Notes under the pieces: model-generated
The model's database searches: none
What the model was told of the DNA's origin: nothing
The model's input: the letters and a program-made list of their open reading frames with translations, nothing else
Part shown: piece by piece, positions 13,450-64,000 of the stretch
How the letters are laid out: each line of letters opens with the position of its first letter
How positions within the stretch are numbered: the stretch's first letter is position 1
Assembly: GCA_037200965.1 (NCBI GenBank)
Contig: JBBCGK010000001.1
Span: forward strand, 512,001 to 576,000
Source: a bacterium
GTDB lineage: Bacteria; Patescibacteriota; Minisyncoccia; Phycocordibacterales; Phycocordibacteraceae
Length of the DNA stretch: 64,000 nt
Direction of reading: 5' to 3'
Program-made: the position numbers and the translations under genes

Positions 13450-14537
13450 CCTACCATACGTATACACTGATGTCAATCAATGCGTAAGCTACTCTCAACC
13501 TCTAACTGCCCGCATATGATACCACGTATGTATACCCACCTAACGTTCGAGGAACGAGAATGCATTGGTCTTATGCGTGCAGCCTACTTCTGGCCAGTCG
13601 AAATCGCACGCGAGCTCAATCGCGATCCTAAAACCATCAGACGAGAGCTCAGACGCTCGAAACCGTTGTTTGAAGGATACCGACCAAGCCGGGCACACAA
13701 AGATGCACGAAAGAAAAAGAAAATCCCGAGACGCGGGAAGAAGCTCAACTACGCGCCTCTTCAGCGTGTCGTGTATGCAAAGCTCCGGCTTCGCTGGAGC
13801 CCGGAGCAGATTGCGCAGTACTTGAAACAGCACTACGCTACAGATACTCGTATGCAAGTCTCCCACGAATCCATCTACACCTATATCTATGTGCTCCCGC
13901 GCGGGAGCCTCCGCAAGGAGCTTACGTCGTACCTGCGCCAGGGCGCCGAAGGGCGCAGGCGCAGGTATCGGGTGCACGACAGGCGAGGAAAGATACCCAA
14001 TATGGTGAGTATTCACGAGCGCCCCAAAGAAACGGAAGACCGCTCAGTACCTGGACACTGGGAGAGCGACCTCATTATCGGCAAAGGACATCAATCAGCC
14101 ATTGCGACCTTGGTGGAACGCACCACGCGCATGACCATTCTGGTGCCGCTCAGAGAAAAGACCGCTCCTGCGGTGCGCATGGCACTTACGAAAACCGTGA
14201 AGAGCTTGCCCCGCGAAGCCTTCCGATCAATCACCCATGATCGCGGCAGCGAGATGGCTGAGCACGAACTCTTCACCAAAGAGACCAGGGTGCAGGTGTA
14301 TTTCGCTGATCCACAAAGCCCGTGGCAGCGTGGTACAAACGAAAATACCAATGGCCTTATTCGTCAGTATTTCCCCAAGGGAACGGACTTCCGGCGGGTG
14401 CCAACTAAGTATTTGAAGCAAGCGCAGAAGCAGCTCAATACTCGGCCCAGAAAAGCTATCGGCTTCAAAACACCTGAAGAAGCATTTGCGCTATTATTAA
14501 AGAAGCGGGCATTTAGAGTTTGAATTCAAGTAATGGT
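13450..14537 (+). mobile_element. IS30-family element (ends approximate)
   Basis: Transposase above; left end resembles IS30-type IR (ATGTCAATCAATGCG). Right IR appears truncated or abutted by the next IS. No clean TSD found. Confidence 0.4.
13480..14523 (+). CDS. IS30-family transposase
   Basis: HTH (LTFEERECIG) plus DDE core (GHWESDLI...DRGSEM...YFADPQSPWQRGTNENTNGLIRQYFPKGTDF); real start probably at M17 (13528). Confidence 0.85.
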   Translation: MRKLLSTSNCPHMIPRMYTHLTFEERECIGLMRAAYFWPVEIARELNRDPKTIRRELRRSKPLFEGYRPSRAHKDARKKKKIPRRGKKLNYAPLQRVVYAKLRLRWSPEQIAQYLKQHYATDTRMQVSHESIYTYIYVLPRGSLRKELTSYLRQGAEGRRRRYRVHDRRGKIPNMVSIHERPKETEDRSVPGHWESDLIIGKGHQSAIATLVERTTRMTILVPLREKTAPAVRMALTKTVKSLPREAFRSITHDRGSEMAEHELFTKETRVQVYFADPQSPWQRGTNENTNGLIRQYFPKGTDFRRVPTKYLKQAQKQLNTRPRKAIGFKTPEEAFALLLKKRAFRV

Positions 14538-56773: not shown

Positions 56774-57514
56774 ATGATCTCAAGCCTTTTCCACACGTTC
56801 TTCTACGACCCGATCTACAACCTCCTGGTATTTCTCGTATCCGTCGTCCCGCACGGGGACGTCGGTCTCGCGGTCATCGGCGTTACCATACTCGTCCGAC
56901 TCGTACTCCTTCCCTTCTCGCTTTCCGCCTCGAGAACCCAGCGCGCGATGAAGGTGCTTGAGCCGAAACTCAAGGAAATCAAGGAACAATACAAGGACGA
57001 CAAGCAGGAGCAGGCCGCGAAGACGATGGAACTTTATAAGACCGAGCGGGTAAACCCGTTCGCGAGCATCGTGACACTCCTTATACAAATGCCGGTCCTC
57101 TTCGCGCTCTATTTCGTTTTCCTCCACGAGCCGTTTCCGCAGCTAAATGCGCACCTTCTCTATACGGCGACTCCCGTTCCGGAAACGATCTCGCTTCTTT
57201 TTCTTGGGATCGTAAGCGTCCTGGGGCATAGCATCGTGCTCGCGGTTATCGCCGCCGCCGCCCAGTACTATCAGGTCATCCTTGCGGTGCCGAAGCCCAC
57301 TCCCAAGATAAAGGGTGAAGTTCTCAGTACCCAGGAGGAATTCACCCGGATGATGGGCCTCTATATGCGCGTCATCATTCCCGTGCTCATCGGCGTCGTG
57401 GCATACACGACCTCAGGCGCAGTCGCCCTCTATTTCATCACCGGCGCGGTCGTAAGTATTCTCCAGGAGCTGTATATAAAGCGCCAGTTCGACGCGAAGC
57501 CGGTCGCCCTATAA
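56774..57514 (+). CDS. yidC: membrane protein insertase YidC (short form)
   Basis: LLPFSLSASRTQRAMKVLEPKLKEIKEQYKDDKQEQAAKTMELYKTERVNPFAS. Confidence 0.85.
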   Translation: MISSLFHTFFYDPIYNLLVFLVSVVPHGDVGLAVIGVTILVRLVLLPFSLSASRTQRAMKVLEPKLKEIKEQYKDDKQEQAAKTMELYKTERVNPFASIVTLLIQMPVLFALYFVFLHEPFPQLNAHLLYTATPVPETISLLFLGIVSVLGHSIVLAVIAAAAQYYQVILAVPKPTPKIKGEVLSTQEEFTRMMGLYMRVIIPVLIGVVAYTTSGAVALYFITGAVVSILQELYIKRQFDAKPVAL

Positions 57515-58774
57515 ATCGTACGCCCAGAGCGAGCCGTCGCGTTTGTTGAGGAACACGAGCACGTCCTTCCGGGGATCGACCGTAAGCGCGGTCGCGTCAA
57601 GCGGCCCGTCCGTCGCTCCCGAGAAATCGAGCGCCAGCTCGGCAAAGCGCCCGCCGACATCTATCTTCCAAATCCGGTCCGTGAACGAAACGGCCCCCTG
57701 ATACCAGTCGTCAGGATAGGTCGCGGTCGCAAGAGATCCCGGAACCGGCACGCCGCAATAGACGGCGCTTTCGTCAGACGTCCACGCGCATTTGTCCGCG
57801 ATCGTCGCGACCGGAAGCGCTATCAGCTCCCGGGTCCTGATGTTCAGAAGCGAAGTCTTCAGATTGCCCTGCTCGGTATAGCTTAAGAGCGCCCAGGTTC
57901 CCAAAGGACTCGGAAGCGCCACGAGTCCCGGCACGGGGCCGAACAGCCGGTTCATGGCGCCCGCGGTGTCGATGAGAAAGGCGTAGCCGCCCGAAAGTCC
58001 GGTCGCTTTCGTATACGCGACGAACTGGCCGCTTCCCGCAGGGCGTGCCGAAAGGCTTCCGAGGGGGGAAGAAAATGCGGTGCGCGAAGCGCTGCCGTCG
58101 GCCTTGGAGACGGTGCCGATGGAGCCGTTGCCGCCGCTTGAAAGCGAAAATACCGAAGATGAGCCGACGGTCGCGATACCCGCGATGTTTACGGGAAGGA
58201 AAAAGCCCTCCGTACCGTCAGCCGGGAGCGCGTAGGTGTCGATCTCCGGGTTTTCCGCGGTGCCGCCGGCGTAGCGAAGATATGCGAGCGACCCGTCGGG
58301 GAGCCACGTCGCTTCCTGAGTTCCCGGGATCGTTTTGTTGACCAGGCGCTTCGCCGCGCGCGCATGGAAGAGATAGGAGAAAAGATTTCCGCTCTCGCGA
58401 AGCGCGTAGCGGACTTCGGTATCGGGGACCGGGAGGCTCACGGTGCTTGTGCCGCTCGCTTCGCCCGCGGGAAGCGGCGCCGTACTGCTTGAAATAAACG
58501 CGACGGCGCCCGGCACCACCGGGCCTTTCGTTATCTCAATGAGCCGTTGCGTAACTACGGTTCCGGCGGCCGCGCCGCCCGTGTCCGGGTCTACGGTATC
58601 GCTTTCGCCTCCCGCAGCGTCCCCTGCGGGGTTTCCGAACGGGTTCGTGCCGGTATCGACGACGAGGGTCGGCGTTCCGGCGAAGATAAAGAAATATGCG
58701 GCGGCGCCGAGGCCTCCAAGGACGATGAGTATCGCGAGGATGATAAGTACGCGCCGCATAATCAGGAATCGCAC
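57509..58774 (-). CDS. membrane-anchored secreted hypothetical protein (421 aa, beta-rich)
   Basis: N-terminal TM; last gene of the minus-strand pilus/T4SS-like operon; overlaps the upstream gene by 13 nt. Confidence 0.5.
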   Translation of the reverse strand: MRFLIMRRVLIILAILIVLGGLGAAAYFFIFAGTPTLVVDTGTNPFGNPAGDAAGGESDTVDPDTGGAAAGTVVTQRLIEITKGPVVPGAVAFISSSTAPLPAGEASGTSTVSLPVPDTEVRYALRESGNLFSYLFHARAAKRLVNKTIPGTQEATWLPDGSLAYLRYAGGTAENPEIDTYALPADGTEGFFLPVNIAGIATVGSSSVFSLSSGGNGSIGTVSKADGSASRTAFSSPLGSLSARPAGSGQFVAYTKATGLSGGYAFLIDTAGAMNRLFGPVPGLVALPSPLGTWALLSYTEQGNLKTSLLNIRTRELIALPVATIADKCAWTSDESAVYCGVPVPGSLATATYPDDWYQGAVSFTDRIWKIDVGGRFAELALDFSGATDGPLDATALTVDPRKDVLVFLNKRDGSLWAYDL

Positions 58775-60039
58775 ACCTTGCCTGGTGCCGCGGACGCAGG
58801 GACGATCTCATCGACATCCGCGCTCGTGAAATCGCATTTGAGGTCGTACACGTTCGCCTTGTATCCAGGATAAGCGGAAACATTCTTAGCCGCGGACTGC
58901 TGCGCCTCCTGAAGACGTTTCGCGCAAAAGGATTTTGTGTCAACCGGGGTACGAGGAGATTCCTCGGTGGTGTCGGGTGTTTTTATCCAGTTGGCGCTCG
59001 CACCGAGGTGGGTTCCGCCGCCGTACACCCAGCAGCTCATTAAGGCCCTCGACTTATCGTTTGAAACGATTGCCTCATCGTCATACCAGTGCCACCAGGT
59101 GAAAACGTAGTATCCTGCCGCGCCGATTTTGACCGATACGGCGTTCGACGCCGACGAACTTACGCCGGAAGCATCTCGCGCTTTGACGGTAAAGGAATGG
59201 TCCGAACCGGCCGCGAGTTTGGAGACGGTGGCGGTCGTGCCTGCCACGGATTGCGCGAGGGTGCCATTGTCATACACGTCGTATGCAGCAGGAGCCGTGC
59301 CGCTCGGGGGGGCTTTCCAGGTAAGGGTCACGCTGGTAAGAGTCTGTGCCGTGACGGTGAGACTTTGCGGTGCCGTATCTCCCACCGTTCCGGTCCCGTC
59401 GCCGTCCCCTCCCGTATTGCCTCCTCCAACCTGGGTACCGTCCGGACTTCCCGTGCCTCCTCCTGTGTTTGAAGAATTGGTCGGCTGCAACTCATACGTA
59501 TTTATTTTAAGGCTCAGAATATCCGGATTTATAATGCTAAATACGAGAAACGGAGCAAGGACGAGCACGAGCCCGATGATCGCTCCGCCGATCTGATCCC
59601 GGCCTTCCGAGTGCGCCGTAATACTGTCGCCGCTCATCACCTTAAAACCGCCAAGCGTGATCATGAGGATGGCGAGAACCGCTGCGGCGCCGATGCAGAA
59701 CTTGTAGAGGCCGTTGAAGAATTCGGCAAGGTTATTCGGGTTTACGTCCGTAAGCCCCGGAACCGCCGCAAGCGGTACGAAAGAGCTTCCTTTTGCTGAA
59801 GATGGGGGTGTAGGTGTTGGGGAGGGAGCCGGAGTCTGTGTCGTTACCGGAACAGTACATTGATACGAATCAGCCGTTTTCCCGGGAAGACCCTTGATGA
59901 GAGCGCAGTTCTCCTCCTTGCCGCCGCATGCGCTGACGCAGGACTTGAGATCCGGATAGGTCGCATAGCTTTCCGCAGCGGCTACGTTCGGGGAAAAGAA
60001 TGCTATGACAATAAAAGCGAGGATAGGAAGATATTTCAT
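58762..60039 (-). CDS. multi-domain secreted protein: signal peptide + Cys-rich module + VirB2/TrbC-like pilin hydrophobic hairpin + Gly-rich linker + FN3 domain + Cys/Trp-rich C-terminal domain
   Basis: NLAEFFNGLYKFCIGAAAVLAILMITLGGFKVMSGDS...GGAIIGLVLVLAPFLVFSII is a two-helix pilin-like hairpin. LTVTAQTLTSVTLTWKAPPSG...YDVYDNG...HSFTVKARD is FN3-like. Confidence 0.45.
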   Translation of the reverse strand: MKYLPILAFIVIAFFSPNVAAAESYATYPDLKSCVSACGGKEENCALIKGLPGKTADSYQCTVPVTTQTPAPSPTPTPPSSAKGSSFVPLAAVPGLTDVNPNNLAEFFNGLYKFCIGAAAVLAILMITLGGFKVMSGDSITAHSEGRDQIGGAIIGLVLVLAPFLVFSIINPDILSLKINTYELQPTNSSNTGGGTGSPDGTQVGGGNTGGDGDGTGTVGDTAPQSLTVTAQTLTSVTLTWKAPPSGTAPAAYDVYDNGTLAQSVAGTTATVSKLAAGSDHSFTVKARDASGVSSSASNAVSVKIGAAGYYVFTWWHWYDDEAIVSNDKSRALMSCWVYGGGTHLGASANWIKTPDTTEESPRTPVDTKSFCAKRLQEAQQSAAKNVSAYPGYKANVYDLKCDFTSADVDEIVPASAAPGKVCDS

Positions 60040-61025
60040 AGTCCAAATATACCAGTACCCCCGCTCGTCTCCCCGAAGCTTATGCGCAGCGCACGCGTCG
60101 CCGTTTCAAACAATTGAGGGAGGGTCGCCGTGACGGAAACCGCCGCACTCCCCTTCCCGCCCGTGGAGCGCAGCGTGATAGCGGGGTTGCTGCCGCTTGC
60201 GCCGCTGTTGACGGTCCAGACGATCGCGGGCGTTCGTGCGAATCCATACGGCACCGCGACGAACGTCGCTTCGGCGCCCGGCATGGCGAACTCGTCGCCA
60301 AGCGCGCGGTCGTAGCGGATTCCAAGGAGCGGATCGCTCTCATACACCCGTACGGAAGGGTCTGATGGAGAGATTCGAAGAACGCTATCAGCCACCAATG
60401 ATTGGTCGGGACTCAAGACTGTTACCTCGATCGTTGCGTCGCGGTAGCGGACGGGTGCCGTCATAGAAACAACTGAGCGGCCGATGCCCGAAAGATCCGC
60501 GAGTTCCTGCCCGTTCAGTTTCCATTTATACACGAGCGTACCATCGGTGAATCTTTTCCCGCCGGTTGCTCGCAAGTCGGGAAGGGCGACGAGGCGTACT
60601 TGCCCTTGCGACGGAATACCGAAGCCTCCCGGGTAGAACGGATGGCTTGTTGCCGCAGGCTCTGCAATAAGCGCGACTTCGGCAGGACGCACGGTCTGGC
60701 TTGCGCTGTATGCTTGGCCGCCGATGGTTGCGATCGCTTTCACCACTGTCGCGCTTCCGGCCGCGCCAAGCGTGACCCGCGCCCGCCCGTTCGTCATTGG
60801 AATTTCTTTCCCGTCGGCAAGAATCGTTATGATTGCGGCCGCCAAGTCAATGGAGTTGCTCGACAGGCTTGCCGTTATCGTGTCATAGGGCCGTGGGTAG
60901 TCTGGTGAAATGGCGAGCGTAAGCGCCGGCCCCCCCGTTCCAAAGACGCCCTGCGCGAATACTGTCGCGGGCAACAGAATACCAAGGAGTGCATAAGCGA
61001 AGAAACGCATGTCTTCAGTATACAA
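60036..61025 (-). CDS. secreted hypothetical protein (329 aa, signal peptide)
   Basis: MRFFAYALLGILLPATVFAQG signal peptide; 4-nt overlap with downstream gene. Confidence 0.5.
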   Translation of the reverse strand: MYTEDMRFFAYALLGILLPATVFAQGVFGTGGPALTLAISPDYPRPYDTITASLSSNSIDLAAAIITILADGKEIPMTNGRARVTLGAAGSATVVKAIATIGGQAYSASQTVRPAEVALIAEPAATSHPFYPGGFGIPSQGQVRLVALPDLRATGGKRFTDGTLVYKWKLNGQELADLSGIGRSVVSMTAPVRYRDATIEVTVLSPDQSLVADSVLRISPSDPSVRVYESDPLLGIRYDRALGDEFAMPGAEATFVAVPYGFARTPAIVWTVNSGASGSNPAITLRSTGGKGSAAVSVTATLPQLFETATRALRISFGETSGGTGIFGL

Positions 61026-61039
61026 GCTTTTCGGTATCT

Positions 61040-61531
61040 TCAGGCAGCCTCCTGTGCACTTTCCGTGGTCTCCTCGTTATCGTTTGCCGCCGCCGCTCGC
61101 ATCTCGGCAGCTCCTCGAGCGTATGCATCCGCGCGCCGCCGCTCGGCTTCCTTCGCCTTTATCTCCGCCGCATGGGCCGCATTATATGCGGCGTCCTCAG
61201 TTCGGCTGATGATGATAGTGCTTATAACCCCATAGGTAACGCCGGGCAAGGAATTAAGCAAAGGAGTCGCTTCAAGCACGGCGCTTCCGAGCAGGTTGAG
61301 CAGCTTCGCCGACTTGCCTTTCGTCATCTTTATGCCAAGCAGCGGAAACCACACCAGATAGAAAACGATACCGGCAAAGATCGCCACAAACCAGCTTCCG
61401 ATAAACGCGACGGCATTCCCCACGACCGGAATTGAGTTAAGAAAAAACAGAAAGAATTGAATCAGATCGAAAAGCGCCGCAAGCCCGCACATAAGCGCCG
61501 CCACGAACACTCCGACACGTTTTTGCTTCAT
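61040..61531 (-). CDS. small polytopic membrane protein (VirB3-like candidate)
   Basis: 3-4 TM helices, Ala/Glu-rich tail; directly downstream of VirB4 with a 4-nt overlap. Confidence 0.45.
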   Translation of the reverse strand: MKQKRVGVFVAALMCGLAALFDLIQFFLFFLNSIPVVGNAVAFIGSWFVAIFAGIVFYLVWFPLLGIKMTKGKSAKLLNLLGSAVLEATPLLNSLPGVTYGVISTIIISRTEDAAYNAAHAAEIKAKEAERRRADAYARGAAEMRAAAANDNEETTESAQEAA

Positions 61532-63348
61532 GACGCCCTCCCTCCCTCAAGCCGGTCCTTCTCGCGCTTGATCGAAAGGAGCTGCGAGGGGTCGGACGTG
61601 ATGATCTGATCTTCGGTATACGACGCGACGACCTTTATCGCGACGTGCTTGAGGCCCGCGAAGAAAAGCCCCTCCCCCACTCCCGACTCGAGAAGCAGGT
61701 ATTTCTCCTCGTCCGTGAGGTTGAAGGTTTCCTTGAGAACGTCGATCGAAGTCGGCGATTGCTTGAGGAGCAGCTGGATCGAGGAGTTGTTGAGGATAGG
61801 GCGGCCGTAGGGGGAACGGAGGAAGTCTTCCACGTCCTGCGTGATGGTCGCGACGCCGAGATAGTATTTGCGTCCGCGCTTGGCGAGGGAGTAGAGGAAG
61901 GAGGCCGTATCCTCGGACTTCATCATCCACCACGCCTCGTCGATCACGAGGAGGCGCTTCCGGAGTTCGTGCCGGATCGCGTTCCAGATGAAGTGCGTGA
62001 TGATATACATCGCGATCGGCTTGAGTTCGTCCTCCATGTCGCGGACCGAGAACACGATGAATTGCTTCTTGATGTCGACGTTCGTCGGCTGGTTGAGAAA
62101 CCCCGCCCACGTGCCGTGCGTGTACTTCGAAAGCCGCTGCACGAGGGATTCGCTGCCCTCAAGGCCCGACAGTACCTGCTCGAAGTCGGTGAGAAGCGGC
62201 GGCTCCTGGCCGGTGAAGTCGCTGTCGCCCGTGATGTCTTTGAGGGCGTACGTCTCCCCGATCGCCCGGTCGATAAGCGCGTCTTCCTCGGGCGTGAGGC
62301 CGCCGAGCATGATGCGGAAGAGACCGACGAGCGTAATCGTGTTCGAACGCAGGATATCCCGCGGGTTTTCGTCCTCCTTTACCGGCGGCAGGTCGAACGG
62401 ATTGATGTGATGCTCGCTCGAGAGCGAGATGTTGAACGACCTGCCGTCCGTCGCTTCCGCGAGCTGCTCGTATTCCCGCTCCGGGTCGATCACGATCACG
62501 TCGGTGTCGAACATGAGGGAACGAAGTATCTCGAGCTTGGTGGCATAGGATTTCCCCGAGCCCGACTTCGCGAAGACGACCGAGTTGTAATTCTCAAGCG
62601 AGAAACGGTCGAAAAGGATGAGCGAGGAATTGTGGCGGTTGATGCCGAAGAGTATGCCCCGGTCGCTCGTAAGGTCGAAGGAGACGAACGGGAAAAAACT
62701 CGAAAGCGGCGGCGTATCGAGCTTGGTATTGACGAGCAGCTCGTCGGTGCCAAGGGGAAGCGCGCTGCGGAACCCCTGCTCCTGCTGGAAGAGCGCGGGC
62801 TTGGTGTAGACCAATACCGAATTGAGCCGTCCGGTCACCTCGTTTTCGGTCTTATCAAGCTCGTCCTTCGAGTCGGCGTAGAGCGTCATGTAGAGGCCGA
62901 CTTCGAACAGCTTCTCCTCCGCCCGCTGCAGGCTGTCGCGGAGAGTCTCAAGGTTCTGGTATGACGTATCGAGGAGCGGATCGCGCACCAGTCCCTTGTC
63001 TTCGCGCTCCGATATCTGGCTTTGTATTTCCGCCACCTTTTTCTGGAACTGCCTGAGCGCCGCTTCGGTCTCGACCGGGTGTATGTAGAGCGCGATGTCG
63101 AAAGGTTTGTCGAGGTTCACGATCGGCGAAAGCCAGGAATCCGAAAGCGTGCTCGGATAGCTTATGGTATAGAACGATCGCGCGAATTTCTCGCCAAGCT
63201 CGAGTTCCCGCGCGCTGATCTTAAGCGCCGCGGGCGCGATGGTGTCGACGAGATCGAGCGCGCCCTTCCGGTAAATGTCTTTCGGCAGCACCGGGATCAC
63301 CTCCGGGGTCTGCTGCTGTTTTTTGTTTAAGAAGTCGAGAAGTGCCAT
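61528..63348 (-). CDS. virB4: VirB4/TrbE/TraC-family type IV secretion ATPase, C-terminal 606-aa portion
   Basis: Walker A VVFAKSGSGKSYATKLEI, Walker B VIDEAWWMM, conjugative-ATPase C-terminal motifs. Confidence 0.8.
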   Translation of the reverse strand: MALLDFLNKKQQQTPEVIPVLPKDIYRKGALDLVDTIAPAALKISARELELGEKFARSFYTISYPSTLSDSWLSPIVNLDKPFDIALYIHPVETEAALRQFQKKVAEIQSQISEREDKGLVRDPLLDTSYQNLETLRDSLQRAEEKLFEVGLYMTLYADSKDELDKTENEVTGRLNSVLVYTKPALFQQEQGFRSALPLGTDELLVNTKLDTPPLSSFFPFVSFDLTSDRGILFGINRHNSSLILFDRFSLENYNSVVFAKSGSGKSYATKLEILRSLMFDTDVIVIDPEREYEQLAEATDGRSFNISLSSEHHINPFDLPPVKEDENPRDILRSNTITLVGLFRIMLGGLTPEEDALIDRAIGETYALKDITGDSDFTGQEPPLLTDFEQVLSGLEGSESLVQRLSKYTHGTWAGFLNQPTNVDIKKQFIVFSVRDMEDELKPIAMYIITHFIWNAIRHELRKRLLVIDEAWWMMKSEDTASFLYSLAKRGRKYYLGVATITQDVEDFLRSPYGRPILNNSSIQLLLKQSPTSIDVLKETFNLTDEEKYLLLESGVGEGLFFAGLKHVAIKVVASYTEDQIITSDPSQLLSIKREKDRLEGGRAS

Positions 63349-63366
63349 GCGTAGTCGTACTATAGC

Positions 63367-64000
63367 CTATGCTTCGAGCCTGATCGGGTTTTCGATCTCG
63401 CCGGGATTGAAGGAACGGTACAGGAGTTCGATCACCTCCTCGGTCCCGAGCGGTATCGCCCGGAGCCCGGTCGCCGAAAGTCCGCTTGAAACGAGCGCCA
63501 TGCGCTGCTCGAGCTGCGCGCGGTCTTCTTCGAACGCTCCCGGCGCCTTCGTTGCGGCGGACGAGGCTTTTGTTCCGCCGAAGATGCCGCCGATCGCGCT
63601 TGCGACCTGTACCCCGGCCCCGGAAGCGTACGGCACGACGATATAGAAGGTTTTCGTCATTATGTTCGCGCGCTCCGTGAAATCGCGTACGAACTCTACG
63701 TACTCGCGAAGCTGTAGCCGCATGAGGTCGGTTTTCTGGGAAGACTCTTTTGTCTCAAGAAGAGCGAGGTACGGGCGGATGTCCATCTTGCGCGAATGGA
63801 CGACGATCTCGACCGAGAAATCGAGCGTGTTGAGAAAATTCTGGAAACCCTCGAGAATGGCGCGCTGCTCGTCGTTTGACTTGAGCGCGAAGTTAAGTGA
63901 CGAGCACATAAGGACTCCCCGGTACCCTCCGTCTTTGAGGGTTATGATGCCGTTCCGGATTTCCTTGACCGGAACGAACTGCTGCGTCGCCTGGCTTTTC
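63367..64000 (-). pseudogene. virB4: VirB4 N-terminal portion (continues past window edge), same frame as 61528..63348 but separated from it by a single in-frame TAG
   Basis: Translation upstream of the track M (63909) stays open to the window edge (...KEIRNGIITLKDGGYRGVLMCSSLNFALKSNDEQRAILEGFQNFLN...), typical of a VirB4 N-terminus. TAG at 63367-63369 read directly. Confidence 0.55.

Follow-up and report, generated by a model that had tools for sequence, protein, structure and literature searches.

Near one end of the window, by which we mean the whole stretch of 64,000 nucleotides that was analysed, two open reading frames follow one another on the minus strand. The upstream one ends with ...NPIRLEA at a TAG (63369-63367), an 18-nt spacer follows, and the downstream one begins at an ATG (63348-63346) with MALLDF; a single frame runs throughout. 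Written in codons of the minus strand, the junction reads GAA AAC CCG ATC AGG CTC GAA GCA TAG, then GCT ATA GTA CGA CTA CGC (63366-63349), then ATG GCA CTT CTC GAC TTC. All six codons of the spacer are sense codons, and a continuous translation of 61528-63999 contains just one stop, between ...NPIRLEA and AIVRLR-MALLDF. On this geometry the initial annotation was right: the NPIRLEA segment and the 606-aa MALLDF segment share a frame and are parted by the TAG, and the sequence and the continuous translation agree on it. Other adjacent gene pairs within the window are also parted by one in-frame TGA or TAA (stops at 14521, 11855, 18792 and 50916). The features of the locus are collected in Table 1, together with insertions that occupy the same junction in other species.

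Table 1. Features of the trsD-like/virB4 junction and of the operon around it. Coordinates are those of the window unless a locus is named.
Feature	Position	Strand	Basis
trsD-like / "TraC-like" (PF26593) gene, 215 aa; start 5 codons past the window end	63367..64000	-	Identity to P0001; NCBIfam matches; conserved C-terminus
TAG, genuine stop codon of the trsD-like gene	63367..63369	-	Orthologues have TAA, TGA or TAG at the same position; TAA at this codon in the closest relative
Non-coding intergenic spacer, 18 nt, GCTATAGTACGACTACGC	63349..63366	-	Homologous spacers vary in length; no Shine-Dalgarno sequence; no conserved hairpin
virB4, VirB4-like conjugal-transfer ATPase, CD1110/TrsE type, 606 aa	61528..63348	-	NF045971; Pfam; alignment with pSK41 TrsE
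Next operon gene, 163 aa, hydrophobic, apparently a membrane protein	61040..61531	-	189-aa gene at the same place in L081; no Pfam match
Operon gene, 329 aa, without family assignment	60036..61025	-	330-aa gene at the same place in L081
Operon gene, 425 aa, weak T4SS-pilin-like segment and fibronectin type III	58762..60039	-	fn3 E 2.2e-8; PF18895 E 1e-4
Last operon gene, 421 aa, unassigned	57509..58774	-	406-aa gene at the same place in L081
Cassettes at the junction in six other species	L016:4622-5426, L021:4640-5533, L034:4628-5346, L049:613-1164, L061:4634-5512, L071:1899-2876		

The upstream reading frame leaves the window at position 64000. An identical protein (P0001; 100% identity, 215 aa) encoded on a 960-kb contig of an NCBI metagenome-assembled genome indicates that just five codons are missing. 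A search with this N-terminal piece gave 4,494 homologues. The best 120 of these 4,494 are all 209-232 aa long, share 66-100% identity with the query, all belong to PF26593 and terminate at the same residue; they come from NCBI, JGI, ENA and Logan assemblies of Kaiserbacteria, Paceibacterota and Minisyncoccia. When 20 of the homologues are aligned, mean column identity is 70% with many invariant residues, and the C-terminus ...FNPGE[L/I]ENPIRL[E/D]x-stop is kept in 18 of them. The assignment of the window's reading frame to PF26593 comes from precomputed Pfam tables for P0001 and the homologues; a local Pfam scan of the N-terminal piece gave no significant family, PF26593 included.

What this small protein is can be read from two NCBIfam models of VirB4 ATPases. 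It matches VirB4_plasma over positions 101-233 (E 2.9e-11) and the CD1110 VirB4 model, conju_CD1110, over positions 1-120 (E 1.8e-7), and it is homologous to the first ~120-190 residues of VirB4 proteins made as a single chain. The similarity to TrsD itself is far fainter. The match to the TrsD/TraD family NF041427 (E 1.2e-3) has 18.7 bits, below the cut-off of 200, and an hhalign comparison with TrsD of pSK41 is marginal (E 5e-3, probability 7%). The context is of the TrsD/TraD type: the order in relatives is PrgI, TraC-like, VirB4, and a VirB4 without its N-terminal segment lies directly downstream. The "TrsD" label that we use is thus a matter of synteny, of a published CONJscan-profile result and of common homology to the VirB4 N-terminus, and the relationship to TrsD is a remote one. 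A PDB sequence search with the profile of the TrsD-like protein returned a chance-level match only, and the AlphaFold2 model built from the 20-sequence alignment is poor (mean pLDDT 58).

The product of the downstream gene (MALLDFLNKK...) closes at TGA 61530-61528. It scores 385.5 bits against the CD1110 model NF045971 (cut-off 325, E 4.7e-115) over model positions 179-733 of 752, and Pfam adds P-loop_TraG (E 3.5e-26), AAA_10 and DUF87. Both nucleotide-binding motifs are intact: Walker A as SGSGKS at residues 262-267 (62548-62565), Walker B as LLVIDE at residues 466-471 (61936-61953). Positions 1 to ~180 of the CD1110 model are absent from this polypeptide, and positions 1-120 are those matched by the separate upstream protein. 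Taken together, the trsD-like protein and the 606-aa VirB4 correspond to one CD1110-type single-chain VirB4, and it is for this reason that the locus looked like a split virB4. On the same alignments we class the window's VirB4 as the split version, TrsD plus a TrsE-type ATPase, and not as a single-chain CD1110 member.

Undivided versions of the pair do seem to occur. An exhaustive search of 50%-identity representatives gave 2,501 matches; among the 150 nearest, 149 are small proteins and one, the Patescibacteria-like P0209 (797 aa), is fused and colinear with both window pieces at 48% identity. Compared with the window, P0209 lacks ~26 residues, which are the N-terminus of the separate VirB4 (LLDFLNKKQQQTPEVIPVLPKDIYRK). 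With P0209 taken as gene-called, and so as a candidate fusion, fused TrsD-VirB4 forms would exist and be rare among these 150 nearest representatives.

The genes that follow virB4 are tightly packed. The ATG of the 163-aa gene overlaps the virB4 stop (ATGA, 61528-61531), a second ATGA overlap lies at 60036-60039, and the 421-aa and 425-aa genes overlap by 13 nt at 58762-58774. The 425-aa protein has a signal-peptide-like N-terminus, a weak T4SS-pilin/TrbC-like hydrophobic segment, whose T4SS_pilin match falls below the Pfam cut-off, and a fibronectin type III domain; it is unusually large for something "pilin-like". The DNA past the window end, upstream of the trsD-like gene, has to be read from relatives, where the operon consists of PrgI (VirB3), TraC-like, VirB4 and four further genes, with YidC adjoining. 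Next to the window's operon there was no sign of a relaxase or a coupling protein.

The junction was also compared in other species. We fetched 80 loci from the genomes of different GTDB species; two had no downstream VirB4 match, which leaves 78 informative ones. At every one of the 78 a stop closes the small gene and virB4 is found downstream of it, and the VirB4 alignments start at residue 1 of the window's 606-aa protein. The stop stands at the same codon even in relatives that are just 65-70% identical. The comparison with orthologous virB4 genes, which the initial annotation had proposed, therefore finds the orthologues naturally split at the same point, a result that the annotation itself had named as one that would refute its reading. 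Its phrase that a TAG "splits the virB4 gene" holds in the sense that the two pieces jointly make up one VirB4; it misleads in that trsD-like and virB4 have long been genes of their own.

The stop position, the VirB4 start and the two-gene layout are thus conserved across many species, while the frame, the spacer and the identity of the stop codon are not. TAA closes the trsD-like gene at 47 of the 78 loci, TGA at 21 and TAG at 10. At the 72 loci with short junctions virB4 starts as ATG-[A/S]LLDF within -14 to +39 nt of the upstream stop, and spacers of 1-3 nt are the commonest. The relative frames 0, 1 and 2 are represented 24, 29 and 19 times. Since frame 0 occurs at only 24 of 72 junctions and all three frames are found, the common frame of the two genes in the window is a one-in-three coincidence. 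One locus (L024:4641-4653) has a trsD-like reading frame that runs 14 nt beyond the virB4 ATG, so that the genes overlap; the junction tolerates overlap as well as spacers.

The closest relatives, known from independent assemblies, are L081 (85% identity) and L082/L083 (78%). They have the same operon with PrgI upstream, and the GCA TAG of the window is replaced in them, codon for codon, by GCA TAA. The spacer measures 17 nt in L081 and 11 nt in L082/L083, which amounts to indels of 1 nt and 7 nt relative to the window, and virB4 is out of frame in both. Because these indels are not multiples of three, the spacer evolves as non-coding DNA. The spacer of the window (GCTATAGTACGACTACGC) is homologous to that of L081 (L081:7652-7668, GCTATAGTATCTAGAAT). 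The taxonomic labels of some records are odd. A 2-kb contig labelled "Candidatus Woesearchaeota archaeon" (L080, DAHXMN010000149.1) carries the same bacterial trsD-like/virB4 junction at ~65% identity, and many TPA records of "uncultured Candidatus Saccharibacteria" contain Kaiserbacteria/Paceibacteria-like copies of it. Both probably reflect problems of binning or labelling.

Other species show two further kinds of junction. In six of them a cassette of 552-978 nt sits exactly between the trsD-like stop, which is then always TAG, and the virB4 ATG; the window has no such insertion. The ends of the cassettes are CTAG-rich imperfect inverted repeats, for example TAGGCTCTAGGCGCTAG / CTAGCGCCTAGAGCCTA, and in L061 the arms of the repeat are up to 49 nt long and reach into both flanking genes. 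The GC content of the cassettes equals that of their flanks or falls short of it by as much as 10 points. A complete gene of ~120 aa for a 23S-rRNA-intervening-sequence (IVS) protein (PF05635, E 4.5e-36) is present in five of the six, and in the sixth (L049) just the C-terminal part of the IVS protein is left, fused to the second reading frame. This second reading frame varies: it has a SET domain in L071 and DUF5680 in L021 and L061, and is of unknown type in L016 and L049. A search of all 83 loci found the repeat motif GCCTAGNGCCTAG at the ends of these cassettes only. The element resembles an rRNA-IVS-like or mobile cassette, placed here within a protein-coding operon. Neither the CTAG-rich repeat nor an IVS-protein gene was found in the window. 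Its spacer and that of L081 share the initial letters GCTATAG, similar to those at the left end of the IVS-protein cassette (GCT[T/C]TAGGC...), and, as a pure speculation, the window spacer might be a remnant of such a cassette.

The other kind of junction is seen in seven species (L023, L031, L042, L052, L056, L070 and L080), which have in common a conserved AT-rich spacer of 31-39 nt (consensus ~TTTTTAAACTTTTACATATTTAAATATTTCACC) where most species have 1-4 nt. It could be a putative internal promoter or regulatory site.

Signals that might tell how virB4 is translated were also looked for in the window. No Shine-Dalgarno sequence was found upstream of the virB4 ATG, just as the initial annotation had remarked. 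The remark is correct and uninformative, because SD-like matches upstream of the window's reading frames, taken from crude first-start gene models, are no commoner than at random positions. This suggests that initiation in the genome to which the window belongs is largely SD-independent. Folding across the junction gave no sign of conserved RNA structure, with a mean z of +0.4 over 63 orthologous junctions and -0.38 in the window; if anything, these 63 junction regions are less structured than shuffled controls. The 49-nt inverted repeat of L061 had given rise to the idea of a hairpin that sequesters the start codon and provides a basis for coupling, and the folding of the 63 junctions led us to reject it. 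Nine tRNA genes are clustered at 20.4-34.3 kb of the window, and none of the nine has a CUA anticodon or is a suppressor tRNA. TAG closes ~22 of the 74 long reading frames in the window (~30%), at sensible gene ends.

Similar arrangements have been described. Among the T4SS components detected in Patescibacteria, TrsD is the most abundant according to PMC12102498 (Microb Genom 2025): it has 2,272 homologues there, 1,664 of which are associated with virB4. TrsD was assigned there by CONJscan TrsD profiles; it is remotely homologous to the VirB4 N-terminus, PrgI/VirB3 is encoded nearby, and the systems are described as chromosomal (PMC12102498). Outside Patescibacteria, the pGO1 subclass of MPF-FATA systems is the only known source of TrsD (PMC12102498). 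The window shares both genes, their order and their adjacency with this description and belongs to the same phylum, and its operon and those of its relatives match. We see no substantive difference; the in-frame 18-nt spacer and the TAG are lineage-specific details. The arrangement is therefore already known, the adjacency of TrsD and VirB4 across Patescibacteria having been reported in PMC12102498, and the window is a further example of it.

The staphylococcal plasmid pSK41 of S. aureus (Staphylococcus aureus) offers the same layout: the small gene trsC, then trsD (227 aa) and, 14 nt further on, trsE (672 aa), which encodes a shortened VirB4-type ATPase. An alignment of the window's VirB4 with TrsE runs from residue 3 of the former and residue 2 of the latter onward (E 1e-40), and since the alignment begins with the first residues the split point is homologous in the two systems. 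The two-gene layout and the VirB4 start point are common to both, and the layout is ancient. pSK41 and pGO1, of the pGO1 subclass of MPF-FATA, are plasmid-borne, conjugative and from a Firmicute, whereas the system of the window belongs to a 960-kb contig. The single-chain VirB4-like ATPases CD1110 (NF045971) and Mbov_0397 (NF045975) differ in another way: the two window pieces map colinearly onto both models, but in the window the N-terminal ~200 residues are a separate polypeptide.

Several other accounts of the TAG can be offered, and some of them were put forward when the locus was initially annotated. If the TAG were a recent nonsense mutation in a formerly contiguous virB4 of ~830 aa, we would be dealing with a fresh pseudogene. 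Two reading frames in one frame that jointly match one full-length VirB4 model could be understood in this way, and a contiguous relative, P0209, exists. However, a fresh mutation does not explain why this very codon is a stop in all 78 informative species genomes and in the best 120 of 4,494 protein matches, nor why the closest relatives have TAA followed by out-of-frame spacers. Conservation is high in both genes, VirB4 retains intact Walker A and Walker B motifs, and the downstream ATG and the N-terminus that it begins are conserved as far as TrsE of pSK41. It is hardly conceivable that the gene is a pseudogene. A false stop created by sequencing or assembly is a natural suspicion where the source is a metagenome-assembled genome (P0001 is annotated "MAG"), yet independent JGI, ENA, NCBI and Logan assemblies all end the protein at the same residue, those of the closest relatives included, and hundreds of assemblies would have to repeat the error at this one codon. 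We consider an artefact of this kind extremely improbable. Reassignment of TAG to a sense codon in an alternative genetic code would also make one protein of the two. Some Patescibacteria lineages do use alternative codes; the known case concerns UGA, not UAG. TAG closes some three tenths of the long reading frames in the window where genes should end, none of its nine tRNAs could read UAG through a CUA anticodon, and orthologues have TAA or TGA at this very position. Such a reassignment can be discounted almost entirely.

The remaining alternative accepts that the TAG is a stop and supposes that it is read through by a programmed recoding event, which would give a fused TrsD-VirB4 beside the two separate proteins. 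A two-polypeptide VirB4 with possible readthrough had been considered in the initial annotation, and its two halves fare differently. That there are two polypeptides is borne out, the N- and C-terminal pieces matching successive parts of the same models and P0209 being colinear with both. The readthrough half can point to the shared frame, to six spacer codons free of stops and to the fused relative. Against it, the frame is not conserved (24/29/19), most species have spacers of 1-4 nt or even an overlap, and the nearest relative, L081, uses TAA and has been put out of frame by a 1-nt indel in the spacer. The identity of the stop codon varies, the junctions lack conserved RNA structure, the window encodes no suppressor tRNA, and TAG serves as an ordinary terminator in it. 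Programmed readthrough is therefore very unlikely. A weaker version can be imagined, because trsD and virB4 are in frame here and the 18-nt spacer has no stop: slight spontaneous readthrough of the TAG could give a covalently fused full-length VirB4 resembling P0209, and the genome would be a possible snapshot of a transition between fusion and fission of VirB4. We give this idea little chance of being correct.

We are left, with high confidence, with the simplest account: the TAG is the normal stop of a separate, conserved 215-aa TrsD homologue that lies directly upstream of virB4 in a chromosomal, monoderm-type (MPF-FATA-like) T4SS operon. The order of this operon would be PrgI/VirB3, TrsD-like, VirB4 and four more genes, and the N-terminal segment of VirB4 is made as a polypeptide of its own, the TrsD-like protein. 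Contacts with VirB3 and with the membrane complex are an established property of the N-terminal domain of VirB4. Because of these known contacts, we infer that the truncated VirB4, and PrgI/VirB3 as well, are probable binding partners of the TrsD-like protein, so that the N-terminal module would be rebuilt non-covalently. As for virB4, in such a packed and SD-poor operon it may be translated either by its own initiation or by coupling of termination and reinitiation.

For annotation, this means that an in-frame stop "inside virB4" at this place should not be taken for the mark of a pseudogene, of an error in assembly or of recoding. The window adds nothing new on how TrsD works with VirB4, and TrsD is a protein without assigned function (PMC12102498). 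What the locus does illustrate is that Patescibacteria, like the staphylococcal plasmids pSK41 and pGO1, devote a separate gene to the N-terminal segment of VirB4, whose product is the TrsD/TraC-like protein. In the sole species tested, Ca. Southlakia epibionticum, this TrsD-like protein is reported to be essential for epibiotic growth (PMC12102498).
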